Assembly (NCBI GenBank): GCA_964593295.1
Contig: CAZQHD010000002.1
Coordinates: 1-43,573, forward strand
From: an uncultured Thermotogae bacterium
Lineage (GTDB): Bacteria; Bipolaricaulota; Bipolaricaulia; UBA7950; UBA9294
Reading direction: 5' to 3'
Length of the DNA stretch: 43,573 nt
This document shows, one piece after another, positions 4,547 through 41,183 of the stretch (its first letter is position 1; every line of letters begins with the position of its first letter). The notes under the pieces are model-generated. The model worked only from the letters and a program-made list of their open reading frames with translations, made no database searches and was not told the origin of the DNA. The position numbers and the translations under genes are program-made.

Positions 4547-5189
4547 ATGCGAGTTCGTAGATGGGGATTCGTTATTTCACTGATTGTCATCGTTGGAATG
4601 GTGTCGGGATGCGGGCTGTTCAACGCAGCACCGGTGGTCAGCTTCTCATGGAGTCCCCAGGATCCCCTCGCCCGATCGGATGTCCAGTTCTCGGACTTGT
4701 CCACCGATGCCGGGGGGGTTGCTTGGCGGCGGCGGGGTCGTGACCTGGCTGTGGAACTTCGGGGATGGGTCTTCGTCTCCGATGCAGCATCCGAAGCATC
4801 AGTACGACAAGGGCGGGCCTTATAGTGTGCAGCTCACGGTGACCGATGGAGGGGGCAAGACAGCGACGGCCATGAGGCAGATCACGGTCACGCCGAGCCT
4901 TGCCGGTCGCTGGACGGGAACACTGACAGATCTGGCGTTCAACTCTGTCGGGATCTCGTTCGAGCTTCAACATTCGGCGTCAGGCGGAATCAGCGGAACA
5001 CTCTATGTTGTGAACGCTGCATTTCCGGTCTCATCCGCGTCGTTCAACGCCGCGACCAAAGAGGTTCAGATCATGTCGGCAACCATCATCTTCCGAGGGA
5101 CGCTGGATGCCAATGAGCGTCGCATCTCGGGATACTGGTACGATCAGTTTGGGGTGCGCGGAGAGGATTGGTCTGTAAGCCTCCTGTAA
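4547..5189 (+). pseudogene. PKD-domain lipoprotein interrupted by a +1 frameshift at a G7 tract (a real pseudogene or an assembly error)
   Basis: Frame of 4547: MRVRRWGFVISLIVIVGMVSGC (lipobox), then PKD strand VSFSWSPQDPLARSDVQFSDLSTDAGG. The PKD consensus continues in the frame of 4584: VVTWLWNFGDGSSSPMQHPKHQYDKGGPYSVQLTVTDGGG. Removing one G from the run at 4712-4718 joins the two halves. Confidence 0.6.
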
Positions 5190-5318
5190 TCCTGGAGGGG
5201 TTGAGATGCGGGGACCACAGGCTAGAGGGCTACAGCCTCCTCCGGTGAGGTGGATGGATCATGGGAGGCCGCCCACCCGAGGGTCCTGCCGATCGTGTGA
5301 TACGGCGGCTGCCTGGGG

Positions 5319-6638
5319 ATGAGTTGGCGAAAGGCCTCTACGGCTGGATGGGGGGGCATGTTGTTGATCGGTCTTGCGCTGATCAACGGATGTCTGCTGT
5401 TTCCGAACGATCCACCAGTTGCGGTCCTGGATGCGTCTGTTCTGCAGGGCGTTGCCCCGCTGGAGGTTCGTTTCGATGCCTCGGGCTCATTCGATCCGGA
5501 CGGACACATCACCGCGTATGCATGGTCGTTTGGGGACGGGAGCTCGGCCGAGGGGGGCGTTGTCATCCATCGATTTGAGGCCCCGGGCCGGTATGAGGTT
5601 CACCTCTCGATCCGCGACAATCGAAGGGCCGCCAGCCATGCAATGGTGATCATCGACGTGGTGGCGTCCAATGATCCGCCCCATGCTCACATCACAGCGA
5701 TTCCTCAACAAGGAGATGCCCCCCTGCTGGTGGCCTTTGACGGCACGGGGTCGAGCGACTCCGACGGGAGCATTGTCTCGTGGGAATGGGAGTTCGGCGA
5801 TGGGGCGTCGGACTCCGGACCGGTGACGTCGCATCGCTATGTGTCTCCGGGAACGTACACGGCGCGGCTGACCGTGACGGACAATCTCTCGTCGACCGCG
5901 ACGGCCTCTCTTGAGATTCACGTCACGGAGCCTCCGCCGTTTACACGCCAGATCACGTGGGAGCATCTGGGAAGATCGTACCATCGATCGGTGTCGATCC
6001 CTGCGTCTCTCTACTACGCATACATCGAGGAGTCCCGTGTGATCGGTCCGGTTCAAGACTACGATACCTACGTCCTCGATCCTCGGGATGATGCGATCAT
6101 GACCGAGATCGCGGCGTGGGTTCGGGGCCAAGTGGGGGGAGACTACCACCTGACGGCTGAGTGTCTCTTCCACTTCGTGCAGGCGGCGGTGGCCTATACT
6201 TACGATCGGCCTGGCTTCGAGTATCCCAAGTACCCGCTGGAGACGCTTGTGGACGAAACCGGGGACTGTGAGGATACCGCGATTCTCTACGCGGCGTTGG
6301 TCCGAACGCTGGGAGCAGGCGCGAAGATCGCCGCGGTGGACACGAGCGGGAACGGCAGTCCGGATCACATGATCACCCTGGTTCCTGTGAGCCAATCCTA
6401 TGCGGATAGCGTCACCTGCCCTCAGGGGCAGGCGAAGAGTTTCTGGACGTATGGAGGACAGCTGTACGCCCTTGCTGAGACCACAGGCTCGCCGGACGTG
6501 CTGGGGGACTATCTCTCCCTTGGCTGCGATCCCTGGGGCCTGGGTGCCGATGACTTCAAGATCGTCTGGGACGTATCTCGCATCTCCATGAATCCCAATG
6601 TGGTGCGATGGTCTCCGGTCTCTGTGCCCGAGCATTGA
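5319..6638 (+). CDS. lipoprotein with two PKD domains and a C-terminal transglutaminase-like (Cys-His) domain
   Basis: Lipoprotein signal ...LIGLALINGC. Two PKD repeats (ITAYAWSFGDGSSAEG...YEVHLSIRDN and IVSWEWEFGDGASDSG...YTARLTVTDN). The C-terminal part has GDCEDTAILYAALVRTLG ... PDHMITLVPV, resembling a transglutaminase-core Cys/His pair. Confidence 0.7.
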   Translation: MSWRKASTAGWGGMLLIGLALINGCLLFPNDPPVAVLDASVLQGVAPLEVRFDASGSFDPDGHITAYAWSFGDGSSAEGGVVIHRFEAPGRYEVHLSIRDNRRAASHAMVIIDVVASNDPPHAHITAIPQQGDAPLLVAFDGTGSSDSDGSIVSWEWEFGDGASDSGPVTSHRYVSPGTYTARLTVTDNLSSTATASLEIHVTEPPPFTRQITWEHLGRSYHRSVSIPASLYYAYIEESRVIGPVQDYDTYVLDPRDDAIMTEIAAWVRGQVGGDYHLTAECLFHFVQAAVAYTYDRPGFEYPKYPLETLVDETGDCEDTAILYAALVRTLGAGAKIAAVDTSGNGSPDHMITLVPVSQSYADSVTCPQGQAKSFWTYGGQLYALAETTGSPDVLGDYLSLGCDPWGLGADDFKIVWDVSRISMNPNVVRWSPVSVPEH

Positions 6639-9855: not shown

Positions 9856-10858
9856 ATGTCGAGGTTGATCGATCGATTGCTGGACTCCGCATCACGCCAG
9901 GAGGACGACCCCCGTCCTGTACAGCGCATGCGCTTGCCGAGCGTTGTGGGATGGGGCTTGGTCTTGCTGGTCGCGGCCATCTACTTGGCGACCGGCATCT
10001 ACACGGTGGGCGCGTCCGAGGAGGCGCTTGTCAAACGGTTCGGTCGCTATGTGCGAAGCACCGGGCCGGGGATCCACTATCATCTGCCGGCACCGTTCGA
10101 ACAGGTCGTTACGGTCGACATTCGGCAGGTCCGGAACGTGGAGATCGGGTTTCGTACGATCTCTCCGGCACCGAACCCGCGGTATCAGTCGATCATCTCC
10201 GAAGCACAAATGCTGACTGGAGACGGGAATATCACGCACGTGGAGATGGCGATCCAGTATCGGGTGAAGGACGCGGCGATGCTTGCCTTCAACCTGATCT
10301 CACCGCACACGATCGTCAAGCAAGCGGCCGAAGCGATGCTTCGCGAGGAGGTCGCCACGAGAACGTTGGACGAGACCCTCACGGAACTGCGCGATGTCAT
10401 CGGGATCAACACGCTGATCGCGTTGCAGGAACTTCTGGATCTGTACGGAGCAGGGATCTCGATCGACAACGTGCAGCTGCAGGCGGTGAAGCCGCCCAGT
10501 GAGGTTGTGTCTGCGTTCGATGACGTCAACAGCGCAATACAGGACAAGGAGAAGCTGATCAACCAGGCGCAGCGGTATTCATTGGACATCATCCCGCGCG
10601 CGGGGGCAGGCACGGGAGATCTCCAACCAGGCCGATGCGTACAAGCAGACGCGGATCAAGGGCGCCGAGGGGGAGGTGGCGAGGTTCCGAGAGGTTCTCG
10701 CCCGTTACTCGGTGGGCGAGGAGGTCACACGAACCCGTCTGTACATCGAGGCCCTGGAGGACATCCTTCCCGGGATGGAGAAGATCCTCATCAGTGAGGA
10801 CACGGGAGGGATTCTCAAACTGCTCAGTCTCGATGGTGCAGGAGGTGAGATCGAATGA
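9856..10858 (+). pseudogene. hflK: FtsH protease modulator HflK, reading frame broken near 10595-10606 (a real frameshift or an assembly error)
   Basis: N-terminal TM helix plus SPFH/band-7 core (VGASEEALVKRFGRYVRSTGPGIHYHLPAPFEQV) in the frame of 9856. After ...AQRYSLDIIPRA, the conserved HflK C-terminus (RGQAREISNQADAYKQTRIKGAEGEVARFREVLARY...RLYIEALEDIL) continues in the frame of 10676. Its stop overlaps the hflC ATG (ATGA at 10855-10858). Confidence 0.8.
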
Positions 10859-11715
10859 GGCCTCTGATGGTATTCCTCGGTGTGATCGTTCTCCTGTTGA
10901 TCGGATACAGCCTGCTGACGTTCACCGTGGACGAAACGCAGAAGGCGGCGGTATTGAGGTTCGGGGAGATCGTCCGGCTTGTGGAGACCCCGGGGCTGTA
11001 CTTCAAGCTCCCCTTCATCCAGACCGTCACGCATCTGGACCGAAGGATCCTCAACTATGATATCCAACCGCTCGACGTCTATACCTCGGACCAGAAACGT
11101 TTGACCATCGACAACTATGCCATTTGGCGTGTCGGAGATCCTCGGCAGTTCATCGAGGCAACGGGGGGACGCACTCTCAGCGCACAGACCCGCATCGATG
11201 AGATCGTGTTCTCTGACCTTCGGAACGTGCTTGCGGAGCAGACCCTTGACGAGATCGTGTCCGAGAAGAGGGGAGATTATCTTGATCTCGTGACCGCGAT
11301 GAGTCGGGAGAAGCTCAAGGAGTTCGGCATTGACCTCATCGATGTACGCATCATACGGGCAGACCTTCCGTCCGAGATCGAGCAGGCGGTGTTTGCGAGG
11401 ATGCGCTCGGAACGAGAGCGGATTGCTGCACAGCTTCGGGCAGAAGGGGAGGAACAGTCCAGGCAGATCACGTCGAGCGCGGACCGAGACGCGGAGATCC
11501 TCCTGGCGGACGCGCGCAGGGACGCAGAGCGGGTTCGTGGAGAGGGAGATGCACAGGCGTTGGAGATTTACGCCGTAGCCTACAATGAGGATCCTCAGTT
11601 CTACCGATACTGGCGAACACTGGAGTCGTATCGGGTGGCGTTGGCCGAGAACACCCGCATCGTGCTCTCCACAGAGTCTGACTACCTCCGATTCCTGGAG
11701 CGGATGGATGATTGA
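10855..11715 (+). CDS. hflC: FtsH protease modulator HflC
   Basis: N-terminal TM helix, an SPFH domain (AAVLRFGEIVRLVETPGLYFKLPFIQTV), a coiled-coil C-terminal region, and a position immediately after hflK. Confidence 0.9.
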   Translation: MRPLMVFLGVIVLLLIGYSLLTFTVDETQKAAVLRFGEIVRLVETPGLYFKLPFIQTVTHLDRRILNYDIQPLDVYTSDQKRLTIDNYAIWRVGDPRQFIEATGGRTLSAQTRIDEIVFSDLRNVLAEQTLDEIVSEKRGDYLDLVTAMSREKLKEFGIDLIDVRIIRADLPSEIEQAVFARMRSERERIAAQLRAEGEEQSRQITSSADRDAEILLADARRDAERVRGEGDAQALEIYAVAYNEDPQFYRYWRTLESYRVALAENTRIVLSTESDYLRFLERMDD

Positions 11716-15862: not shown

Positions 15863-16984
15863 ATGTACCATCGATTCATGAAACGTGCACTCCAGGTGTT
15901 CTTCGTGGGGGTCTCAGTTGCCCTTATTGCCGGCTGTCTGTTCGACATGAACCTGCCCGTGGTCGATTCGGAGGGTGGGGTGTTCGTCTTTCTGTCGGAG
16001 GATGGCTCGTATGCCTCGTTCTCTGAGGGGGGATCTCTCTATCGGTGGCTTGATGGGCACTGGACCCCCTTCCCCCAGGTGTCGGTTGAGAACGCGGGGG
16101 CAGTCATGGCTGTCTCTCCGAACGGCGAGGAGCTTCTCTACGTGGAGGTCCTTTCAGAGAGCCCCTTCGATCCGCCCTTGACTCGAATCTATCATCTCTC
16201 CACAGTCTGTCCGGCCTCTGCTGCGCCCCGTCTTGTGACAGAGACTCGTCAACTGCTGGCTCGTGCCGCGTGGTCGCCTTGGGGCGTCCTTGTTCTGACG
16301 CTGGATGCGGAGGGCGAGGGACGTATCGGACGACTGGATCTCGCGTCTGGCGAGATCGAGACGCTTCGCACAGGGGTTCTATCGTTTATCGTCCGAGACG
16401 ACATCCTCATCTTCTCGGTGGAAGTGTTCGGTGACCTGGGGATCGGGAGGATCGATCGTTGGGATCCCGAGAGGGGGCCCTTCGAGCACCTCGCGTCCGT
16501 CGCCGTCGGACGAGACACCGCGATGATCTTTCGCTCTCTTCCGCACTCCGTTCTCTGGGACGCGACCGAGGATGGATTGGGCATGGCTCTGGCGATCTAC
16601 AGTGCGTCCGTTCTATCTCCTGACCTGCAGGACAGCTCGCCTTCTCTGTATCTTCTCGACCTTGAAGCAGTCTCAGCTCAACAGGTGGCTGTGACGGGCC
16701 TCATGCCCGCGTTCTCCCCGGACGGAACAAGGCTTGCGCTCCTTGAGGGGGCGGACGAAGAGGCCCTCCATGTGGTGGTCGTATCGTGGAAGGATGGAGA
16801 CAGGCAAACGCTGGAGGGAACGGAGGGAGTCCAGACCCTTCACTGGGTAGGGCCGGATCGTCTCTGGGTTGTGCGGGAAGACGAGAACCAGCAGGTGTTC
16901 CTGCTTGAGGTTGAGGTGTCTCCCGGGGGAGAACACAGTGTGATGATCATCCGCGGCCCAGGGCCTGCGCCGCACACTCCATGA
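15863..16984 (+). CDS. lipoprotein, TolB-like beta-propeller repeats, unknown function
   Basis: Lipobox VALIAGC. Repeated SP(N/D)G..L motifs (AVSPNGEELLY, AFSPDGTRLALL). An alternative start is at 15878. Confidence 0.55.
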   Translation: MYHRFMKRALQVFFVGVSVALIAGCLFDMNLPVVDSEGGVFVFLSEDGSYASFSEGGSLYRWLDGHWTPFPQVSVENAGAVMAVSPNGEELLYVEVLSESPFDPPLTRIYHLSTVCPASAAPRLVTETRQLLARAAWSPWGVLVLTLDAEGEGRIGRLDLASGEIETLRTGVLSFIVRDDILIFSVEVFGDLGIGRIDRWDPERGPFEHLASVAVGRDTAMIFRSLPHSVLWDATEDGLGMALAIYSASVLSPDLQDSSPSLYLLDLEAVSAQQVAVTGLMPAFSPDGTRLALLEGADEEALHVVVVSWKDGDRQTLEGTEGVQTLHWVGPDRLWVVREDENQQVFLLEVEVSPGGEHSVMIIRGPGPAPHTP

Positions 16985-17999
16985 TGCGCGTGTAGCTCAA
17001 CTGCGTTCCTTGCTGGTACCAGGGAACCAGCTGTTCGTGAAGCCGACGGTTGAACGGATGGGCCAACGCCGCCTCCAGGGAACCGTGAAGCCGTCGGCCC
17101 ATGTGGAGTGTCTCTAGCTGCGCGGCGTTCCATTTCTGCTCGTAGTGCCCTTCGATCGGTTGGACCACGATCCTCTTGCCCAGGAAGAAAGCCTCACAGA
17201 TCGTCTGAAACCCTGCGGTTCCTACGTATGCGTAGCAGGACGTGAGATCCTGGAGAAACCGCCCGGCCTCCGACACGAAGTGAACGTTGGCCGGAGTCCC
17301 GGGAGAAGGTTGATTGTACCCGTAGATCAGGATCTCGCGTTCTTGGTGGCGCTCGGCATACGACAGGATTGGGTCTAGCCGCCCGGGAAACGAGTGATAG
17401 ACTAACACATGACCATCATCAGATGGAGACAGTTGCTCTATCTCCGGGCGCAGGATGGGCGGAAGACATGAGCTGTCGTGTGGGTAGAAGTGGCAGCTGA
17501 GGATGACGTCCACACCGCTGGAGCACAGTTTGATGGCCAGGTTCGTGTTGAATCTGTCCAGCCGTTCGCCCGGGAGTGGACTGAGATGGTGTCTACGCGA
17601 CATCGCCCAGTTTCCCACACCCACCTTGAACACGGAGGGGGCGACCAGGGGAGATCCGGTGATGGGGTCGAAGTCGCTTATGATAAAGTCCGGGGCGAAC
17701 TGCGTGATCAGTTTGTGCCCCTGGCGAAGGCTCTTCAGGAGTCCGGGCATCCCACCAACAAACGACGAAGCGGTCTTCCGTTTGGAGATTCCGCCCATGC
17801 CGTCGTCCGCCATCTCGAATCCGGACATCCGCTCATGACGAGAGGTTCCCACGGCGTCGAGGAAGAACGAGGGCGGATCATGGCGCCCGGAGATGATGAC
17901 CAGCATCTCGTGTCCGTCGGCGTCGAACCATGGCTTGAGCGCAGCGAACCGTGCCAGATGCCCGCGACCCGTGCTCTGTACGCCATAAACGATCCTCAC
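16947..17999 (-). CDS. GT-B glycosyltransferase, MJ1255/VC2487 (TIGR00661)-like
   Basis: N-terminus RIVYGVQSTGRGHLARFAAL... is typical of this MurG/UGT-related family. C-terminal GTAGFQTICEAFFLGKRIVVQP is a nucleotide-sugar binding half. The GTG at 17999 is preceded by GGGAGGGGA. Confidence 0.65.
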   Translation of the reverse strand: MRIVYGVQSTGRGHLARFAALKPWFDADGHEMLVIISGRHDPPSFFLDAVGTSRHERMSGFEMADDGMGGISKRKTASSFVGGMPGLLKSLRQGHKLITQFAPDFIISDFDPITGSPLVAPSVFKVGVGNWAMSRRHHLSPLPGERLDRFNTNLAIKLCSSGVDVILSCHFYPHDSSCLPPILRPEIEQLSPSDDGHVLVYHSFPGRLDPILSYAERHQEREILIYGYNQPSPGTPANVHFVSEAGRFLQDLTSCYAYVGTAGFQTICEAFFLGKRIVVQPIEGHYEQKWNAAQLETLHMGRRLHGSLEAALAHPFNRRLHEQLVPWYQQGTQLSYTRIMECAAQALGRG

Positions 18000-18183
18000 C
18001 CGTCCCCTCCCGTGACACACTCGTTCCCATGAGTGTCCGAAGAATCGTAGAGCCCGTCAATCCTAAAGCTGCAGGTTCCCGGCGAGAAGGCTTCTATGGA
18101 TGCCGCTGTCTCGCACTGCTTGCAGTAGCGCCCCCGGGAGGGAGAATAGACAGTGGAAACGACCAAGGAGGGGCTGTTCAATC

Positions 18184-19068
18184 ATGCATCACTTACGATC
18201 GCTAGGGTTTGGCGTGTTCGGTCTGGGGGTTCTTCTTGTCGGGCTGATCGCGGTGGGGGAGACGAAGTCCAACCAGGAGCTTCTGGCCGAGGCGGATCTT
18301 GCCTACGTTGGACGCCTTTGTCCCGAGGGCATGGAGGAGGCGGTCGTGCGCTATGAAGCCGTGCTCGATGGCATCGATTCTCTCTCCGTGTCGGAGCAGA
18401 CCAGTCTCCTGAACCGCCTGTCTCAACTGTACTATGAGTCCACCACGTTTACGATCGATGACGTGCCGGGGGACCGACAGCGATTCGAGAGGGGAAGAGA
18501 GTACGGGCTGCAGAGCCTGAGGCTCAACCCGGCGTTTGTCGAGGCCGAAGACCGTGACTTCAAGGAGGCGGTGTCCTACGTCACGGACCTCGCCGCGCTC
18601 CACTGGACGGCCAGCAACTGGGGAAAGCTGTTGGGAATGACAAGCTGGGTCGAGATTCTCTTCCAACCAGGGCTGGTGGCTCAGGCGGGGAGGATCCTCG
18701 TGTTGTTCGAGCGCGTTGTGGCGCTGGACCCAGGCTTCTGGGGAGGCAGTGCGTGCAGCTCCCTTGGGTCACAACTGGTGATGTCTCCTGCGTTTCTGGG
18801 CGGAGACCGGCCGCGTGGACTCGCCCTGATGGAGCAAGCGATCGACCTGGATCCGTCGTACCTGTCGAACCGAGTCATCTTTGCCGAATACGCGGGGTAT
18901 GCCTACGACACGTTCGGGAATCGAGGCAAGCCTGCCGACGTGCAGCTCATCCGGCAAGAACTCAGCGTCGTCTTGGAGGCTGAAATCGGAGACTGGCCGT
19001 TCTGGAATGCCCGCGCCAAGGAACGAGCGGCCTACCTCCTGGAACAACTCTCACCCGATTCGTCCTGA
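18184..19068 (+). CDS. secreted all-helical (TPR-like) protein, possibly TatT family
   Basis: The ATG at 18184 follows AAGGAGG. N-terminal hydrophobic anchor. The C-terminal block FWGGSACSSLGSQLVMSPAFLGGDRPRGLALMEQAIDLDPSYL..VIFAEY resembles the TatT (TRAP-associated TPR) family as I remember it. Confidence 0.45.
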   Translation: MHHLRSLGFGVFGLGVLLVGLIAVGETKSNQELLAEADLAYVGRLCPEGMEEAVVRYEAVLDGIDSLSVSEQTSLLNRLSQLYYESTTFTIDDVPGDRQRFERGREYGLQSLRLNPAFVEAEDRDFKEAVSYVTDLAALHWTASNWGKLLGMTSWVEILFQPGLVAQAGRILVLFERVVALDPGFWGGSACSSLGSQLVMSPAFLGGDRPRGLALMEQAIDLDPSYLSNRVIFAEYAGYAYDTFGNRGKPADVQLIRQELSVVLEAEIGDWPFWNARAKERAAYLLEQLSPDSS

Positions 19069-19121: not shown

Positions 19122-19886
19122 CTACTCCCCCCATCCTGTCTTGCCGATCTGAGTGAGTCGATTGAGGCAGGGTACGAGAGATTGCATCGCGATCCGGGCA
19201 TGCCGTGCCAGTCGAACCAGCGAGGCCCACTGGCGTGGATGCAGAGATGTGTCGATGAGAAGACGGACTCGGGATGCCTCGGCGCTCAGAACCCGACGGG
19301 TACTCTCCGGCATCGTGTCTTCCAGACGGTCTGAGACCGCGCGCACCGTGAGGAATGGAACGCTGTGGGACGCGGCGATGGTGGCCAGCCAGAAGCTCTC
19401 CATGTCGACCACGTCGGCGCAGTGCTTTGCGGCAAGAGACTGCTTCTGCTTGGGCGTGGCGACCAACCTGTCGGTGGTCAGTCCTCGGAGCCTTCGGACG
19501 TTCCCGGCGCACCCCGTGATGGTTTGCTCAGCCCATGCAATCAGCTGCTCGTCGAGCGCGTGATCCTTGATCGTTGGTCTCCCCGACGTTTCTTCTTCAC
19601 ATCTTACGCTCGTGTACAACGCGATCTCTCCGATGCCCACACCGTCCACCAGCGCGCCGCAGAATCCGAAGGAGACGATCCGGTCGATCCTCTCTTGAGC
19701 CATTGCGCAGGCCACGGCGTTCTGGACTCGATCACGGCCGATTCCTGTTTGGATCAGCAACACCGGATCATCACGATTCGCCGCCCGATACGATGGGAAC
19801 GGCAGGTGCGGATCCCTCCTGTTGAGGCGAAGGGCCTTCTTGACCGGGAGAACCTCCTCACGAACTGCACCGACCAGCAGGATCAT
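19122..19886 (-). CDS. PNP/UDP-phosphorylase-fold nucleosidase, HpnG/MTAN-like
   Basis: MILLVGAV..., TGIGRDR, SFGFCGAL and VVDMESFWLA are the conserved blocks of the MTA/SAH nucleosidase and hopanoid-associated phosphorylase fold. The ATG at 19886 overlaps the sulfotransferase stop (ATGA). Confidence 0.7.
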   Translation of the reverse strand: MILLVGAVREEVLPVKKALRLNRRDPHLPFPSYRAANRDDPVLLIQTGIGRDRVQNAVACAMAQERIDRIVSFGFCGALVDGVGIGEIALYTSVRCEEETSGRPTIKDHALDEQLIAWAEQTITGCAGNVRRLRGLTTDRLVATPKQKQSLAAKHCADVVDMESFWLATIAASHSVPFLTVRAVSDRLEDTMPESTRRVLSAEASRVRLLIDTSLHPRQWASLVRLARHARIAMQSLVPCLNRLTQIGKTGWGE

Positions 19887-21028
19887 GACGAGACCTCGGA
19901 CGATGGATCGCGAAGCGTGTACCCCCATGGGGTGAACGCAAATGCCCACTGACGGTTGACCTCGGCGATGACCTCGCGGCTCAGAGGATACTGGTTTCTC
20001 CGATACCCGGAAACCGATTCGATGTACTGTTCGAAGTAGGGGCGTGCTTTCTCGAACCCGGGAAGCTGCAGTTCCCGGTAGATCCTTGCCAGTTGGGCCA
20101 ACGGCGCTGATTCCAGGTCTTCGTAGCGAATCTCAACATACCGGTTTGCGGGGATGGAGGACCGGTCCTCCAGAAGGCGTTGCATGAGCTTTCGATAGAA
20201 GAGCAGAACATTGAACGGGATCTCCTCCGGGGCGATCCGTTGGAGCTGTGACTTCGGGAGCACCGTCCTGTGCATGTGTACGGTCGAGAGAAACACCTCG
20301 TAGGGATCACGATGGATGTGGATGAATCTGGCTTCGGGGAACAGCTTCAGCAGGGTCTTGATCCGCCCGCTGTGTGCACAGTTCTTGATGACCAGTCTTC
20401 GGCCTTGGCTTCTCACGGTGGCTTTACGGAGGATCTCCTGGTAGACGGCGCACCAACGCGAGAGTGTCGCTTCCGGGAGGCGGTGGAACAGTACGTACCG
20501 ATCGAAAAACCATCGAGCCTGTCGGGGAAACGTAAACGCGTGCAGGAAGGAGTAAGGAGACATGGAGGCCAGAGCAAACTCGTCCTCTTGAGGCGCGTCA
20601 AGGGCGAGAGGGATGTTGTCAATCAGGCGTGTCGGATAGTGTTTGGCCGCGTGCCTTGCCAGCAGGGGCATGAGTCTCCGTTCCCCCGAAAGACAGAAAC
20701 CCGGGGCCATGGCCTGGAAGGTAGAGACGGATCCGACCGCGGGATCCCTGCACAGGAGGTTGTGCAGATGGGTGGTCCCGCTTCGCCAGTGTCCGAGGAT
20801 GAAGAGCGGTTGGGGATGAACCGCGGTATGTCGAACCAAGCGACCGTATCGGACGCGTTCCCATACGCGAAGCGGAGCGGTGAGCAGCGTGGTCAACGTC
20901 ACGAAGGCTGCCCGTAGAAGGAACGGTCTGTCTACGCTCGGGTGCTCTCGAAGCAGGCGCACCCAGCTGGAGAAGGATCCCAGCGCGATCGGATGCTCTG
21001 TATGTCTTCGGTGTTCGCGTTTCGACAT
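19883..21028 (-). CDS. PAPS-dependent sulfotransferase family protein
   Basis: 5'-phosphosulfate binding loop GHWRSGTTHLHNLL, and a 3'-phosphate binding region ARFIHIHRDPYEVFLS. The ATG overlaps the upstream stop by 1 nt (TGATG). Confidence 0.85.
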   Translation of the reverse strand: MSKREHRRHTEHPIALGSFSSWVRLLREHPSVDRPFLLRAAFVTLTTLLTAPLRVWERVRYGRLVRHTAVHPQPLFILGHWRSGTTHLHNLLCRDPAVGSVSTFQAMAPGFCLSGERRLMPLLARHAAKHYPTRLIDNIPLALDAPQEDEFALASMSPYSFLHAFTFPRQARWFFDRYVLFHRLPEATLSRWCAVYQEILRKATVRSQGRRLVIKNCAHSGRIKTLLKLFPEARFIHIHRDPYEVFLSTVHMHRTVLPKSQLQRIAPEEIPFNVLLFYRKLMQRLLEDRSSIPANRYVEIRYEDLESAPLAQLARIYRELQLPGFEKARPYFEQYIESVSGYRRNQYPLSREVIAEVNRQWAFAFTPWGYTLRDPSSEVSS

Positions 21029-22731
21029 CAGCGCACTCTCCCAGGAGGGTGGGATTCATCGTGTGCGTAGGGCATTGCGCTGGCCTGCGACGCATGGAGA
21101 GGCGCGGCGGCCTCTCGAAGCATCACCAGACCAAAGATGGTCGTGGAGTAGGCGATCCCTCCGTTGGGGTGAAGGAAGACGGCTCCTGCCCAGTTATTGA
21201 ACCCCAGCCCGCGGCCAGCCAGCCGTCGGTAGACTGTCTCGCCGGTGTGGAAATCGATGGCGATCCAATACCAGTGAGTCACCGAACACTCTTCACTTCG
21301 CCAGTACATGTACACCAGACCATTGCCCAACGAGAGCTTGAACACACAGAGGCTCTTCTCGGAGCTCGACCAGACTTCACGGCAGGAGAAGCTCCCGTCG
21401 TCTTCTCTGAGCACGTCCACACGCGTCAGCCCCGGCTCCGGACGTGAACGAGGGAATCGATGGTGTCCCCAGTTGTTCTCCACCAGAATCGAGTACCGCC
21501 CCCGTCCCACCCCCTGAGTATCCGCATGTTCAAAGCACGCAACGCTGACATCGGTTCCACTCTTGCCCTGTTCGAACAGAGGGAAACGGCAGAGGATCTG
21601 TCCGTCGTGGCGACGCAACAAGAGAAGATGGATCCTCGGCTCTGCGTTGTCGGTGATGGCCACCAATCCATCGAGGTCTCCCATCAACGAAACCGAGGTC
21701 CCCGACCCTCGAGCAATGTGTCCTGGTTTCTTGGCGCCGCCGCGATCATACGGAGTTCGCCACTCGATGATCACCTTGCCCTCGTCTCCGACACCGAACC
21801 GGTACATGGCATGATCGGAGACGATGAACGCGCCGTCCTGGCCCACCGCGAACGAGTTCTCGATGGTTTCTCCCTCGAGTTGAAGTGTTCGAACGTCTCC
21901 GGACTCGATCTCCACGGTCCCGACCATCCCCTCTGTGGAGGCAAACCAGTAGTACTGACCGCCCCAATCGGGGAGAACCCATGCAATACTGTCCCTCTTC
22001 GGCCAACGCATCGGTACGACCGAATCCTGGAGGTCGTAGGTCCTCACGACCTCGAAGCTCGAACTGTCGTCAGAGATTCGGATCACCTCGATCGTGTTCT
22101 GTGTCGTGGGGACGACCGCGCGGTCTTCGTGGTCCAAGTAGAAGTACATCCCGGCCCCGATATACTGCCAGGGCATGATCCCCTGCAGCCACCAGTACCA
22201 CGGCCGAGAGGGAAGAGGGTGCGTTGCCAGCAACTCCAGCGAGTGGTCATCGATGAGATCGAGTCGGAACCGCCTGCCGTTGCTGAACACGGCGACGATG
22301 CGCCCGAGGCGATCGTGGGTGAGGGTGCCGTATCCGCCGAACCCTTCGGTTCGAGAGACGATCTCCATGTCGATGCCCAGCGGGCCCGCGGCCGTGTAGG
22401 TGTCGCTCATGGACGCATCACAGTGCATGTTGTTGACCCCTCCGGAGGCCATGAACGGGTGCTTGGGGACCGGCATGTGGGGGATCGGCACGGGCTTGGT
22501 CTCCGGGATGGACCGGAGGACCTCTGAACAGGAAGACGTGTCCGCGTTGTCTCTGCCGAACAGAGCGCTCCACGCCACGCGGAATGCCTCGGAAGGATAG
22601 AGGATGTTGGGCGAGATCGGACGGACAGTGTCTGAGGGCTGGGATGTACAACGCGAGAGGGCGAAGACGAGGAGAACGCAGCCCACGATGATGGCGGGAA
22701 CGAACCAACCTCTTCGCTGAACAGAGTTCAT
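21028..22731 (-). CDS. membrane-anchored extracytoplasmic protein, probably beta-rich/propeller-like, family not recognised
   Basis: MNSVQRRGWFVPAIIVGCVLLVFALS anchor, then about 540 residues rich in W/Y/G beta-strand patterns (GGVNNMHCDASMSDTY, WYWWLQGIMPWQYIGAGMYFYLD, YYWFASTEGMVGTVE). The track's N-terminal extension to 23037 is Arg/Ser-rich and runs into the divergent gene, so I place the start at 22731. Confidence 0.55.
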   Translation of the reverse strand: MNSVQRRGWFVPAIIVGCVLLVFALSRCTSQPSDTVRPISPNILYPSEAFRVAWSALFGRDNADTSSCSEVLRSIPETKPVPIPHMPVPKHPFMASGGVNNMHCDASMSDTYTAAGPLGIDMEIVSRTEGFGGYGTLTHDRLGRIVAVFSNGRRFRLDLIDDHSLELLATHPLPSRPWYWWLQGIMPWQYIGAGMYFYLDHEDRAVVPTTQNTIEVIRISDDSSSFEVVRTYDLQDSVVPMRWPKRDSIAWVLPDWGGQYYWFASTEGMVGTVEIESGDVRTLQLEGETIENSFAVGQDGAFIVSDHAMYRFGVGDEGKVIIEWRTPYDRGGAKKPGHIARGSGTSVSLMGDLDGLVAITDNAEPRIHLLLLRRHDGQILCRFPLFEQGKSGTDVSVACFEHADTQGVGRGRYSILVENNWGHHRFPRSRPEPGLTRVDVLREDDGSFSCREVWSSSEKSLCVFKLSLGNGLVYMYWRSEECSVTHWYWIAIDFHTGETVYRRLAGRGLGFNNWAGAVFLHPNGGIAYSTTIFGLVMLREAAAPLHASQASAMPYAHDESHPPGRVR

Positions 22732-22810
22732 GAACAGGAGGATACCCTGAGGCTGACTCTCGATCACGTGACCGTGAGATCGTGCTCTTGTCATCCGAGG
22801 GTTGAGTCGG

Positions 22811-22851
22811 CGGAGCGCTGAACGGCAAGATGAACCCCGCCGAGCGCTCCG
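22811..22851. promoter_or_regulatory. perfect 9-bp inverted repeat in the divergent control region
   Basis: CGGAGCGCT (22811-22819) and AGCGCTCCG (22843-22851) are exact reverse complements separated by 23 nt. The repeat sits midway between the divergent starts at 22731 and 22921. Confidence 0.25.
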
Positions 22852-22920
22852 AAGAAGGTTGCTGGAAGAGGACCTGCCATGGGATGATACCCGTACACGA
22901 TTCAGAGAGAGAGGGAGAGG

Positions 22921-24591
22921 ATGGCCACACAGGACGGCTTTGTGCTTTGGTTCACCGGTCTGTCTGCGTCGGGGAAGACAACCTTGGCCCAGGCGGTGGA
23001 GAAGGAGATGATGGCACGCGGGATGCCGCGGGTTCAACGCTTGGACGGTGATGTTGTACGCGAGGACCTGACAAGAGACCTGGGCTTCAGCAAGGAAGAC
23101 CGGGACGAGAACATCCGGCGGATCGCGTTTGTCGCGCAGCTACTCTCCTCCCACGGTGTGGCCACGCTCTGCTCCTTCATCTCACCGTATCGAGAAGCGC
23201 GAGCGCACGCTCGCACTCGATGCCGCCGCTTCATCGAGGTGTTTGTGGACTGCCCGATGGACGTTCTTCTCGAAAGGGACCCCAAAGGGCTCTACAAAAA
23301 GGCGATGGCCGGGCAAATCCGAGGGTTCACCGGAGTTGACGATCCCTATGAGGCTCCGGAATCTCCGGAGATTGTTGTCCACACGGCACGCCAAACAGTC
23401 GAGCAGTCCACGCAGGTGATCCTCTCATACCTGGAGACGCACGGTTTGCTCGGAGCCCAACAGTCTGGCGTAATGAGCTCTGTACGGCTCGTGGATCGGA
23501 CGGTGTCAGATCGCCGGAGACTCCGACAGGCGGATGGCCCTGTTCTGGTACTGTCTGACGTGCAGGTGAGCGAGCTAGACGCTATCGGATGTGGGTTGTA
23601 CAGCCCGCTGACAGGGTTCATGACCTCCGCGGAGTACGAGCGCGTGATCTCTTCGATGAGGCTTCCGGATGGCTCCGTCTGGACCGTCCCGATCACGCTT
23701 CCCGTGCCGAATGAACTGCGCCAGGGTATCCGATGCGGGATGGTCCTCACGCTTTGCGATGAGCAGGGGGAGACACATGGTCTTCTAGAAGTGAAGGACA
23801 TCTTCTCCCGCGATCTGAAGCACGAAGCCCAGTCAGTCTATGGGACAACCGAAACGATCCATCCCGGTGTCGCCCGACTGATGGAGGAGCCGGAGGCGGT
23901 GGTGGGCGGAGACATTCACCTCCTTCAAAGATCAGGCCCATCGCAGCATCCCCTCAACATGGATCCTGAAGTCACGAGAGAGCTGTTCTCCCAGAGGGGA
24001 TGGAAGACGATCGTGGCGTTCCAGACACGAAACCCCATTCATCGAGCGCATGAGTATCTTCTCAAGTGTGCGCTGGAGATCTTCGACGGGTTGTTCGTCA
24101 ACCCTCTGGTGGGAGAGACTCAGAAGGAGGATCTCCCGGTTGATCTACGGATGCGCTGCTACGAAGAGGTCTTGCAGGGCTACTTCCCGAAGGAGAGGAC
24201 GATCCTAGGAACCTTTCCCGTTCCCATGAGGTACGCCGGACCGCGAGAGGCTGTGCATCATGCCTTGTGTCGAAGAAACTACGGGTGCACGCACATGATT
24301 GTGGGGCGTGACCATGCGGGGGTGGGTGGCTACTACGGGACCTACGACGCACAACGAATCTTCGATCGGTTCACTCCGGAGGAACTGGGGATCACCCCGC
24401 TATGCTTTGAGCACGCGTTCTACTGCAGGGTGTGCGGCCAAGTGGCCAGCAAGAAGACATGTCCACATGACGCAGAACACCATCTCTTCCTCTCCGGGAC
24501 CAAGGTGCGGGAGATGCTCAGTGGCGGGACTCCGCTTCCCGATGAGTTCACACGGGCGGAGGTGGCCGAGATTCTGCGCGGGGCGCTCTAG
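22921..24591 (+). CDS. bifunctional adenylylsulfate (APS) kinase / sulfate adenylyltransferase (PAPS synthase)
   Basis: The N-terminal APS kinase has FVLWFTGLSASGKTTLA and SFISPYRE. The C-terminal ATP sulfurylase has FQTRNPIHRAHEYL and VGRDHAGVG. GAGGGAGAGG precedes the ATG. Confidence 0.9.
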   Translation: MATQDGFVLWFTGLSASGKTTLAQAVEKEMMARGMPRVQRLDGDVVREDLTRDLGFSKEDRDENIRRIAFVAQLLSSHGVATLCSFISPYREARAHARTRCRRFIEVFVDCPMDVLLERDPKGLYKKAMAGQIRGFTGVDDPYEAPESPEIVVHTARQTVEQSTQVILSYLETHGLLGAQQSGVMSSVRLVDRTVSDRRRLRQADGPVLVLSDVQVSELDAIGCGLYSPLTGFMTSAEYERVISSMRLPDGSVWTVPITLPVPNELRQGIRCGMVLTLCDEQGETHGLLEVKDIFSRDLKHEAQSVYGTTETIHPGVARLMEEPEAVVGGDIHLLQRSGPSQHPLNMDPEVTRELFSQRGWKTIVAFQTRNPIHRAHEYLLKCALEIFDGLFVNPLVGETQKEDLPVDLRMRCYEEVLQGYFPKERTILGTFPVPMRYAGPREAVHHALCRRNYGCTHMIVGRDHAGVGGYYGTYDAQRIFDRFTPEELGITPLCFEHAFYCRVCGQVASKKTCPHDAEHHLFLSGTKVREMLSGGTPLPDEFTRAEVAEILRGAL

Positions 24592-38846: not shown

Positions 38847-41183
38847 CTAATCGTTCGAGCGGCGAGACGGGGCCAGATAGTCCCGTGCAACCTGCTCCAC
38901 CTCTCTGCGGAGCAGGCGGATCTGGCTGACCAGGCGGTGAACGACCTCACTGGTCAGGTGTTCTTCCATCTCTGTGATCAGGGACTCAAGCTCCGGGAGT
39001 CTCTGGAGGGTCTCCTTTCGGACGGCCAGAAGAAGCGGATGATCCGACAGGGCGTTCCGGTCGTCCTTGAGGAGAACAAACCCGGAAAGGCTCAGGGTTT
39101 CCTCCAAGCGAGGGACGATTGCGATCTCCACCGAGCCGAGCTTCAGCAGGGTCTCCACCTCTTCCAATCCACGGTTCTCCTGAATCATCTCCAGGCATTC
39201 GGACAACCCGTACGACTGCAGGAAGGGTTCGAACGCCTCCTCGCTCCACGGTGAGGGCCAGACGGTTCGAAGCATTCCGTCACGATCCGAGCACAGGGCC
39301 GACAGTGCCGAGAGATCTCGATCCGAAAGCGACTCAGCGAGCACGGGCGAGATCGCCAGCCGCCATCCGTCAACCACCGACATTGTCGTCCAGAGCACGG
39401 TCTCGTCGTCGGGTCGAAGAACGGGCAACAGAGTCGACATCGGCCGAAGCCAGACGATATCCGCGTCTCCGTCCTCGAATGCCTGGAGAACGCGCTCTGA
39501 TGACTCTAGCCCCACCAGATCGACCACCTGATACCCGGCTTCGATGAGCATCTGTTTGAGGATCGTACCCAAGAGAAGCTCCACCGTACTCGATCCGCCG
39601 CCCACGGCCACGGATCCTCTCCAAGCAGTGGTCTCCAGCGAGACGTTCTCGGAAACGACCGCACGGTGAGGATCGCGCGTCCGATCCTCTCCCCACCAGT
39701 TTCCGCCCGCGGACAACGAAGGTACGTCTTCCGTTTGGATGTCGTACTGTGCGTTGCTCTGGAACAGATTACGGGTCAGCAAGGGAGGGTCGCTCGGCCT
39801 CTCGATCGACCCGGTAACGCCCAGACGACGAAGATCTTCCTCGATCTGTGAGGGATCCCGTTGCCACTTCAAGCCCACGTCGTTGCCGGCCAAGAGATTG
39901 CCGTCCACGTGAAGCCGACCCGCGGAGCCGATAAGCAAGATTCCTAGACGGTTGCCGGTGAGCGCGTTGCTTGAGAACAGGTCGTCTCCCGTCGCGAAGC
40001 CAAGCAGCCCCCACGCGCACGAGGACAACACGTTGTCCACGACCTGTTGCTGTCCGAGTGAGTGCAGCACAGAGATCCCGCCGCGTTGGGCCGAGGTGAT
40101 CGTGTTGCGGAGAAACACGGTTCCGCGCGACCCGATCGAGACCATACCGTGTTCTCCGCCGGAGATGGCGTTGTCGTGCACCTGATGGTGCTGTCCCCGG
40201 ACAAGCAGGAGTCCAGTCTGGCGACTATCGGACACGGTGTTTCGAAGGAACCTTCCATTCGCGGCCGGACCGACCCGGATTCCGTCCGCGCAGTCGGAGA
40301 TGGCATTGCCTTGAACCAGTGTCCGGGGGCTCTGCTCGATGAGCAGGCCCGAGGTGCCGCACCCGCTGACGTGGTTGGACACGAGTGCGTTCTCACGTCC
40401 GCCTATGAGGACGATGCCCGACTGCTGGGATCGCTGAACCGTCGACTCTTGGACTCGGCTCTGGACCGTTCGATCCATCCGAATTCCCGCCTGCTCGACG
40501 GCCTCCACGCGGGAGCGTTCGATCTCCACGACCTGAGCGTCTTCCACCAGGATCCCGGTGGGCACGGCGCGGATTGTCATGAACCGTACACTGATGGCGT
40601 CGACATTCCGGAGAAGAACGCCCGCGTATGAACTCCCCGAGACGCTCCCATGGAGGAGATGGCTCTGCGAGGCCCCCTCTCCCACGAGCAGTCCGATCTG
40701 GCCCCCGCGCACGTGGACGGACCTGAGCGTGCACCGAACGGCTCCTCGCAGTTCGATCCCCACGGTGGCTGCCTGGACCTCTGTGTCCGTGATCTGAGTG
40801 TCACTTCCCCCTATGAGAATGCCTGCGGCCTCGGAACGAACGGAGATCCCTCGGACGCTGACGTCGTCGGCCGCCAGCGTCAGCGCAGCGCCCTCCTCGG
40901 GGCCTGTCCAGGGGATCCTCTCCTTCCACGAAGTGATCGTGATGCCGGGGACCTCGATCGAGACTGGGCCATGCACGATGCCCACGGACGGAAGCAGAAT
41001 GATGACATCCCCAGGCGCCGAGCGATCGAGCGCGGCCTGCAAGGTGGCGACATCCCGAGGAACGACAATAGCCTCCGACGGGAGACGAGGCTGCCGAACA
41101 GCCCAGAGGGTCCCGGCTGCCAACAACAGCAACACCAGACCCACAACCAGTGCCGTCCGTCGTGTCCACCGGGAGTTCATCAT
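38847..41183 (-). CDS. membrane-anchored fusion protein: NosD-like parallel beta-helix repeats plus a C-terminal OpuAC/ProX-like substrate-binding domain
   Basis: N-terminal anchor TALVVGLVLLLLAAGTLW. About 400 residues of roughly 22-aa PbH1-type repeats (..V.GN.I..C..GI.V..). The C-terminal roughly 230 residues (LLLGTILKQMLIEAGYQVVDLVGLESSERVLQAFEDGDADIVW...) resemble the glycine-betaine-type binding fold. Confidence 0.65.
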   Translation of the reverse strand: MMNSRWTRRTALVVGLVLLLLAAGTLWAVRQPRLPSEAIVVPRDVATLQAALDRSAPGDVIILLPSVGIVHGPVSIEVPGITITSWKERIPWTGPEEGAALTLAADDVSVRGISVRSEAAGILIGGSDTQITDTEVQAATVGIELRGAVRCTLRSVHVRGGQIGLLVGEGASQSHLLHGSVSGSSYAGVLLRNVDAISVRFMTIRAVPTGILVEDAQVVEIERSRVEAVEQAGIRMDRTVQSRVQESTVQRSQQSGIVLIGGRENALVSNHVSGCGTSGLLIEQSPRTLVQGNAISDCADGIRVGPAANGRFLRNTVSDSRQTGLLLVRGQHHQVHDNAISGGEHGMVSIGSRGTVFLRNTITSAQRGGISVLHSLGQQQVVDNVLSSCAWGLLGFATGDDLFSSNALTGNRLGILLIGSAGRLHVDGNLLAGNDVGLKWQRDPSQIEEDLRRLGVTGSIERPSDPPLLTRNLFQSNAQYDIQTEDVPSLSAGGNWWGEDRTRDPHRAVVSENVSLETTAWRGSVAVGGGSSTVELLLGTILKQMLIEAGYQVVDLVGLESSERVLQAFEDGDADIVWLRPMSTLLPVLRPDDETVLWTTMSVVDGWRLAISPVLAESLSDRDLSALSALCSDRDGMLRTVWPSPWSEEAFEPFLQSYGLSECLEMIQENRGLEEVETLLKLGSVEIAIVPRLEETLSLSGFVLLKDDRNALSDHPLLLAVRKETLQRLPELESLITEMEEHLTSEVVHRLVSQIRLLRREVEQVARDYLAPSRRSND

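Follow-up and report, generated by a model that had tools for sequence, protein, structure and literature searches.

3′-Phosphoadenosine 5′-phosphosulfate (PAPS) is confined to the cytoplasm, and little is known, to our knowledge, of the ways in which bacteria attach sulfate esters to envelope molecules or make use of them there. Here we consider a gene, called X below, on a 43,573-nucleotide stretch of DNA (the window) from an uncultured bacterium labelled Thermotogae and placed by GTDB in the Bipolaricaulota (assembly GCA_964593295.1, contig CAZQHD010000002.1, positions 1 to 43,573 of the forward strand). X encodes an eight-bladed β-propeller of no named family, anchored by its N-terminus, and adjoins the gene for a PAPS-type sulfotransferase, a pairing that recurs in several phyla. 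In the reading preferred here, to which we give a probability of roughly 0.4, the cytoplasmic partner makes a sulfated product, probably a lipid, and X is an enzyme that faces outward and acts on this product.

PAPS-independent sulfuryl transfer is known from the aryl-sulfotransferases (ASSTs), many of which are periplasmic or secreted and which use a catalytic histidine to carry the sulfuryl group; the structure of the Escherichia coli enzyme, AssT, is a six-bladed propeller. In the sulfation of caprazamycin by Cpz8 and Cpz4, a sulfate ester made from PAPS is reportedly then used by a second, PAPS-independent enzyme, and both steps are said to be cytoplasmic. The X locus resembles these systems in its possible logic, in which a PAPS enzyme makes a sulfate ester and a PAPS-independent propeller enzyme uses it. 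Unlike the Cpz pathway, it comes with no enzyme for making a carrier (type III polyketide synthase or other) in the window or in the related loci scanned.

Among eight-bladed propellers, BamB and the mycobacterial protein Rv3035 organise envelope machines. Rv3035 is a periplasmic scaffold, although its authors suspect a hidden enzymatic activity (PMC13041763). The tetrathionate hydrolase of Acidithiobacillus ferrooxidans (Af-Tth) is a cofactor-less enzyme in which an Asp (Asp325) serves as the acid and water attacks the terminal sulfonate sulfur (PMC10859504).

A further comparison is with the hopanoid side-chain (hpn) clusters (HpnH, HpnG, HpnA). X and the sulfotransferase share an operon with an HpnG-like gene here, and with true HpnH and HpnA genes in relatives. 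We know of no described hpn cluster that contains a sulfotransferase or an X-type propeller, and the X-sulfotransferase pair differs from these clusters in occurring also in genomes in which a search for a squalene-hopene cyclase gave none.

A signal-anchored propeller of no named family

The X frame is free of stops over 567 codons. The longest frame possible starts from a TTG at 23037 and runs over the divergent PAPS-synthase gene, and the aligned homologues begin a few residues ahead of a hydrophobic helix; the ATG at 22731 is therefore the likely start, while an in-frame ATG at 22794 may serve as an alternative. Residues 8-26 (GWFVPAIIVGCVLLVFALS) have a Kyte-Doolittle 19-residue mean of 2.36 and are preceded by two Arg residues, as fits an N-in signal anchor, which would place the rest of the protein on the extracytoplasmic side. 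A Cys pair (C381/C450), conserved superfamily-wide, fits this location; no conserved lipobox appears in the alignment of the family.

X has no match in Pfam (0 at E<=1) and only noise in NCBIfam. Against PDB sequences it gives weak blade-level matches to designed propellers and nothing more, and the family profile gives no match there. The gene is real, since it has more than 1600 homologue clusters (90% identity clusters) at 57-83% identity, all of them unnamed or 'hypothetical'; a profile search of 1.8 billion representatives returned 1718 relatives, 343 of them below 1e-30. The family spans Bipolaricaulota, Chloroflexota, Myxococcota and Haliea.

A first AlphaFold model was of moderate quality, with a predicted local distance difference test (pLDDT) score of 74. 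A second, made from a more diverse alignment and covering residues 80-545 (ma4c062436160), reached a pLDDT of 89.6 and a predicted template modelling score of 0.90, and its strand pattern in DSSP is that of eight four-stranded blades. Much of this had been anticipated by a first-pass annotation made from the letters alone, which described a 567-residue protein of no recognisable family with a single N-terminal anchor and an extracytoplasmic body rich in aromatic/Gly β-strand patterns, possibly a propeller, its stop codon overlapping the start of a sulfotransferase gene with which it is almost certainly co-translated. The translation, the hydropathy value, the AlphaFold helix, the family searches, the modelled blades and an overlap of one nucleotide all agree with that description, and the four aromatic/Gly motifs that it quoted are present in the translation.

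In a Foldseek search of the PDB with the confident model, Af-Tth ranks first (6L8A, 7CQY; template modelling (TM) score 0.53-0.58, 9-10% identity). Both proteins are eight-bladed propellers located outside the cytoplasm. Unlike X, Af-Tth belongs to the Pfam family PQQ_2, and in acidophiles it acts on an inorganic polythionate rather than on the product of a PAPS sulfotransferase; at the sequence level the X profile has no PDB match. The PQQ_2 family is absent from X itself and gives weak matches in 4 of 28 superfamily members (best 5.7e-5), and PQQ-binding features were not seen in X. With the first model, the top match was Rv3035 (PDB 9P3G; TM 0.46/0.63, 12% identity), which shares with X the eight blades, the periplasmic location, an ordered N-terminal segment ahead of the blades and an envelope partner (PMC13041763). 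Rv3035 differs in being shorter (about 400 residues) and in pairing with the lipoprotein FecB and arabinofuranosyltransferases rather than with a sulfotransferase. Membership of X among Rv3035-like envelope scaffolds was rejected, the likeness being one of fold and the conserved partner of X being a sulfotransferase. Propellers of the BamB/PQQ_2 type share the blade number and the general fold, whereas X lacks a PQQ_2 match and is conserved far above what is usual for scaffold propellers.

About 150 alignment columns are invariant among 33 close homologues. Kept also in distant, differently linked relatives are H103, D105, D110, D161, Y196, D200, D203, R204, E288, N292, Y328, K335, D361, N362, C381, S396, N419, R437, D439, D493 and D540. 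The histidines H91, H103 and H521 are invariant, and H85 and H338 are nearly so. The D-A/B-C loops of blades 3-8, as placed from the secondary structure of the model and not from coordinates, hold D247/S248, E288/E291/N292/S293, D361-P365, S391-S396, a long loop at 328-347 (Y328, R330, K335, H338, R341, S343), E418-G422, N512-W514 and T530-G534. On this placement, the invariant Asp, Glu, Asn, His, Lys and Arg residues would form a ring on the face that usually bears the active site in propeller enzymes. The conserved segment at residues 85-112, ahead of the blades, may be a plug or closure element, by analogy with Rv3035. Among the positions that are invariant in the sulfotransferase-linked clade alone, aromatic residues are enriched (16/69 vs 36/397, p = 0.0015), which would fit a pocket for lipid or sugar; acidic residues are not significantly enriched among the superfamily invariants (p = 0.19).

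The superfamily extends well beyond the sulfotransferase. In relatives at 30-40% identity the core motifs are retained without a sulfotransferase partner, which argues that the core of X has an intrinsic activity. A sister clade from Chloroflexota (about 38% identity to X) lies in strings of alpha-glucan genes in two of three loci examined, beside genes for GH57, glycogen phosphorylase, debranching enzyme and glycosyltransferase, and with no sulfotransferase nearby (L093:7001-8644, L094:7001-8563). A large Streptomyces subfamily of 'secreted proteins' adjoins a GDPD_2 phosphodiesterase-like gene; in both genomes examined, the X relative follows this gene and a 64-residue open reading frame (L079:5761-9599, L081:4341-9593). 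More distant relatives carry the extracellular accessory modules TSP_3, DUF4214 and InlB B-repeat, which give no catalytic clue. Judged by these sequences, the sulfotransferase-linked clade appears to be a specialised branch of the superfamily.

Pairing with the sulfotransferase, and the neighbouring genes

One base belongs both to the stop codon (TGA) of X and to the start codon (ATG) of the sulfotransferase gene (minus strand ...gcgcTGATGtcg...), and the TGA of the latter overlaps the ATG of the HpnG-like gene by 4 nucleotides (ATGA); from this arrangement X is predicted to be translationally coupled to the sulfotransferase. PAPS is made in the cytoplasm, here by the enzyme of the divergent gene, so the sulfotransferase must act there. 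It carries a conserved N-terminal extension of 70 residues with a borderline-hydrophobic helix (Kyte-Doolittle mean 1.45 at residues 35-53). Its nearest PDB sequences, 2z6v and 2zq5, are listed there as uncharacterized proteins only and are mycobacterial Stf-type sulfotransferases; the CurM/OLS sulfotransferases are also among its nearest solved relatives.

A neighbourhood scan with one genome per species gave 72 X loci (labelled L001 onward) in Bipolaricaulota (many mislabelled Thermotogae), Chloroflexota (Anaerolineae, Dehalococcoidia, Chloroflexia, Caldilineae), Myxococcota and other 'delta' lineages, and Haliea (Gammaproteobacteria). Forty-two of these are informative, with X flanked by 2 kb or more in each direction, and in 41 of them a sulfotransferase gene is adjacent. 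In 35 it is an orthologue of the one in the window (49-62% identity), and in six it is a distant Sulfotransfer_3 gene directly downstream of X (the L063 copy was confirmed, Pfam 3.5e-45); the remaining locus lies on the closed chromosome CP070725. Where a contig ends beside X, the orthologue is still present in the genome on another short contig. Homologues that never co-occurred with sulfotransferases would have counted against the functional link proposed in the first-pass annotation, and the opposite was seen across several phyla.

The order of the two genes is not fixed. X comes first in Bipolaricaulota, Anaerolineae and Haliea, and the sulfotransferase in Dehalococcoidia and Myxococcota, and overlaps of 1-4 nucleotides are frequent in both orders (4 nucleotides in L046, with the sulfotransferase first, and in L063, with X first). 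X is the more conserved partner in 36 of the 42 loci (mean identity 59% vs 55%), and the identity of the PAPS synthase falls to 35-49% across phyla. In the tree, the sulfotransferase-linked X sequences are monophyletic with 100% support, and the hpn-carrying Anaerolineae nest within the Bipolaricaulota group with 95% support, suggesting that the module was transferred. Long open reading frames in L050, L056 and L061 that looked like natural sulfotransferase-X fusions were rejected as frame artefacts of high-GC DNA, the upstream part being out-of-frame, Arg/Ala-rich read-through. One Dehalococcoidia contig (L047) has two X paralogues, at 4637-6214 and 9980-11554, that flank split PAPS-synthesis genes, with a sulfotransferase upstream and an HpnA-like short-chain dehydrogenase/reductase (SDR) downstream; the two copies fall into different subclades of the tree.

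The genes around the pair are listed in Table 1. The divergent arrangement of X and the PAPS synthase recurs in relatives, as does, in Bipolaricaulota, the TatT-like gene, which adjoins the X-sulfotransferase pair in 11 loci. No sigma-70 consensus was found in the region between X and the PAPS synthase, and a promoter and terminator consensus scan of the X operon gave nothing beyond shuffled expectation.

Table 1. Features of gene X and its neighbourhood, in window coordinates
Feature	Position	Strand	Basis
Gene X (P0001): signal-anchored eight-bladed β-propeller, unnamed family	21028..22731	-	Translation, homologues, AlphaFold models, absent family matches
X transmembrane signal anchor, about residues 9-27	22651..22707	-	Kyte-Doolittle; AlphaFold helix 3-28; Arg-Arg ahead; hydrophobic N-termini in all full-length homologues
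X conserved N-terminal segment, residues 85-112 (H..P.HPFMA..G.NNMH.D...SDTY), ahead of blades	22396..22479	-	H103, D105, D110 superfamily-wide
X eight four-stranded blades, residues about 113-540; invariant polar residues in D-A/B-C loops of blades 3-8	21112..22395	-	DSSP of model, invariant columns
PAPS-type sulfotransferase, 381 residues	19883..21028	-	Pfam Sulfotransfer_3 9.1e-38; nearest PDB sequences 2z6v, 2zq5
HpnG-like nucleosidase/phosphorylase	19122..19886	-	PNP_UDP_1 1.3e-18; TIGR03468 HpnG 107 bits, under 187 cut-off
Bifunctional adenosine 5′-phosphosulfate (APS) kinase/ATP sulfurylase (makes PAPS), divergent from X	22921..24591	+	Pfam APS_kinase 6.9e-62, PUA_2, ATP-sulfurylase 6.8e-94
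X / PAPS-synthase divergent intergenic region, 189 bp, presumed control elements	22732..22920	.	Sequence
TatT-like TPR protein	18100..19068	+	Pfam TAtT 3e-11; weak match to sterol transporter BstC, E 0.036
Glyco_trans_1_3 (MJ1255-type) glycosyltransferase	16947..18020	-	Pfam 2.8e-35; occasional module neighbour, also L003, L013

An operon for Spt, an SDR and a lipocalin (sphingoid-base) lies 6 kb away; a tie between it and X was rejected, an Spt homologue being found near X in one of the 72 related loci (L007). Between this operon and the glycosyltransferase gene sits a gene for an exported 373-residue protein (15863-16984, plus strand) with no Pfam match and a faint TolB-propeller match (E 3.8e-4). 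Elsewhere in the window, a 778-residue protein (38847-41183, minus strand) unites a right-handed beta-helix/NosD-like region with an OpuAC-type substrate-binding domain, an unusual combination.

Hopanoid genes around the pair

What might the sulfotransferase sulfate? The HpnG-like gene of its operon is the best HpnG-like match in the whole genome (107 bits; next best 41). The other hopanoid genes are spread, so that at least three contigs are involved: the squalene-hopene cyclase and HpnH genes lie side by side at C84:3379-6777, a true HpnA (456 bits) lies on a third contig (C4:26661-27641), and the only good HpnG-like gene is the one inside the sulfotransferase operon, on C2. In a related locus (L003), a single string holds X, the sulfotransferase, HpnH (429 bits vs 225 cut-off), an HpnG-like gene and HpnA (428 vs 368), and continues with a TatT-like gene, a Glyco_trans_1_3 glycosyltransferase and a PEMT/ICMT-like methyltransferase. 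Comparable gene strings are present in L008, L013, L034, L039, L065 and L072. Another member of the Bipolaricaulota has X within 3 kb of the squalene-hopene cyclase gene (G064:C9:308-1909 and 4874-5824).

Of 151 sampled Bipolaricaulota genomes, 18 carry X and 91 the cyclase, and 16 of the 18 with X have the cyclase too; the genomes are related, so this co-occurrence does not amount to a statistical test. Because hpn genes are found in the operon, in the genome and in relatives, a sulfated extended hopanoid is the most likely product in this organism, as far as gene content can indicate. Among the papers searched, none links hopanoids with sulfation, or HpnH with a sulfotransferase. As a general rule, a strict hopanoid link was rejected, the cyclase not having been found in several X-bearing genomes. 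The pair is present in these genomes and is thus not tied to one lipid.

Possible function and biological meaning

How would the two proteins work together? In the preferred reading, the two genes would encode a sulfation module with one part on either side of the membrane, X being the outer part. The sulfotransferase would sulfate the head group of a membrane-bound polyol or glycolipid at the inner face; here and in related Bipolaricaulota and Anaerolineae, this would most likely be the extended-hopanoid side chain made by HpnH, HpnG and HpnA. The product would then reach the outer face, where X would act enzymatically on the sulfated head group. The most plausible chemistry would be a substitution at or beside the sulfate: sulfuryl transfer to an extracytoplasmic acceptor, use of sulfate as a leaving group, or removal of the sulfate. 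The topology, gene pairing, fold and pattern of conservation are observed, whereas this substrate, this reaction and any physical contact with the sulfotransferase are inferred.

Several observations weigh against this reading. No catalytic residue, cofactor or substrate of X was identified, and His and Arg, a possible sign of a sulfate pocket, are not enriched among the clade-only invariants (7/69, equal to background). The structural matches are at the level of the fold only (TM about 0.55, 9-12% identity), with generic WD40 scaffolds close behind in score. Relatives of X outside the sulfotransferase-linked clade are not linked to sulfotransferases, and the pair has no flippase or sulfate-carrier gene as a conserved companion. 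The Haliea pair is surrounded by unrelated genes for TonB receptors and peptidases, from which it follows that X and the sulfotransferase are the core unit. The Bipolaricaulota chromosome CP070725 (L024/L001) keeps an intact X of 541 residues in a genome with neither a sulfotransferase orthologue nor a cyclase, and its divergent PAPS gene is reduced to APS kinase and PUA_2 (318 residues); this could be a decaying module or point to an independent role of X. The cyclase was not found in 7 of 10 X genomes checked, incomplete metagenome-assembled genomes (MAGs) among them; the negatives include two Haliea, two Dehalococcoidia, one Chloroflexia and one large unclassified genome. Nor was it found in 4 of 5 hpn-linked genomes checked (L034, L039 and L072 from Anaerolineae, L008 from Bipolaricaulota), all of which have X, the sulfotransferase, an HpnG-like gene and an HpnH 60-72% identical to true HpnH. 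Either these four are incomplete MAGs or their HpnH-type enzyme acts on a substrate other than hopene; since the MAGs are of unstated completeness, absence of the cyclase is not established.

X may instead have a non-catalytic role as a scaffold, chaperone or carrier, either keeping the membrane-associated sulfotransferase in position or passing on the sulfated lipid, with the TatT-like protein as one possible recipient. Such a role would suit the Rv3035 match of the first model, the BamB-type PQQ_2 matches in the superfamily, the translational coupling, which suits a stoichiometric complex, and the adjacency of the TatT-like gene together with the aromatic-rich clade-only positions. However, the roughly 150 invariant positions persist across phyla at 57-83% identity, with many Asp, Glu, Asn, His and Lys residues in the D-A/B-C loops, and the core residues are kept in relatives that lack the partner, which points to an intrinsic activity over a partner interface. 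The authors of the Rv3035 study themselves suspect an enzymatic role even for that protein (PMC13041763). On balance, we regard a non-catalytic X as somewhat unlikely.

Could the sulfate be incidental? X might be a secreted carbohydrate-active enzyme (hydrolase, lyase or transglycosylase) that remodels a glycan or glycolipid which is also sulfated, the sulfate not being the point of attack. In favour of this, the superfamily invariants are mostly Asp, with aromatics besides, the sister clade keeps company with alpha-glucan genes, distant members carry extracellular accessory domains, and a glycosyltransferase gene is nearby in the window, L003 and L013. However, X matches no glycoside-hydrolase or lyase family in Pfam, no carbohydrate-active structure is among its top 50 Foldseek matches, the sister-clade contexts examined number three only, and the near-obligate pairing with a coupled sulfotransferase would be left unexplained. 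We consider this explanation quite unlikely.

It is very improbable that X is itself the substrate, tyrosine-sulfated before export by the co-translated enzyme. Sulfotransfer_3 does include protein-tyrosine sulfotransferases, RaxST does sulfate RaxX, and X has invariant tyrosines as well as the tight gene pairing. But the clade-only invariant tyrosines (Y134, Y179, Y190, Y413) are not flanked by the acidic residues usual at sulfation sites, the SDTY motif is kept also in relatives without a sulfotransferase, the roughly 60% identity over 500 residues would go unexplained, and the nearest solved relatives of the sulfotransferase (2z6v/2zq5, CurM/OLS) include no tyrosine sulfotransferase.

Kinship with the ASSTs, which the first-pass annotation had raised as one possibility beside a carrier or a lyase, deserves next to no credence even though X is an extracytoplasmic propeller adjoining PAPS-making genes and Cpz8/Cpz4 offer a two-step precedent: PF05935 is absent from X (E<=1) and from its whole genome (E<=0.001) in a search that finds ASSTs in 10 other Bipolaricaulota genomes, hhalign of the X alignments A1 and A2 against same-phylum ASSTs gives probabilities of 0.8% and 0.1%, and the model has eight blades against six. 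Membership (PF05935/PF14269) was thus rejected on sequence, profile and blade number. By analogy, X might still do an ASST-like job, that is, extracellular sulfuryl transfer.

If X is the outward-facing enzyme proposed here, a bolder and in our judgement unlikely extension would be that it founds a new class of sulfuryl-handling enzymes, PAPS-independent, extracytoplasmic, eight-bladed, cofactor-less and tetrathionate-hydrolase-like. With the cytoplasmic sulfotransferase, such an enzyme would form a relay in which a lipid carries activated sulfate through the membrane. This lipid would be an extended hopanoid in Bipolaricaulota and some Anaerolineae, so that undescribed sulfated bacteriohopanepolyols would exist.

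The genes for X and the sulfotransferase form a compact pair that has been widely transferred and whose products lie on opposite sides of the membrane. Their pairing offers a first functional lead for an unnamed family of more than 1600 clusters, in a superfamily that includes common secreted proteins of Streptomyces. Hopanoid lipids serve as geological biomarkers, and for the Bipolaricaulota the prediction is a sulfated hopanoid, which, if true, would be a new class of hopanoid head group and would bring with it a new class of enzyme in the biochemistry of sulfur esters.

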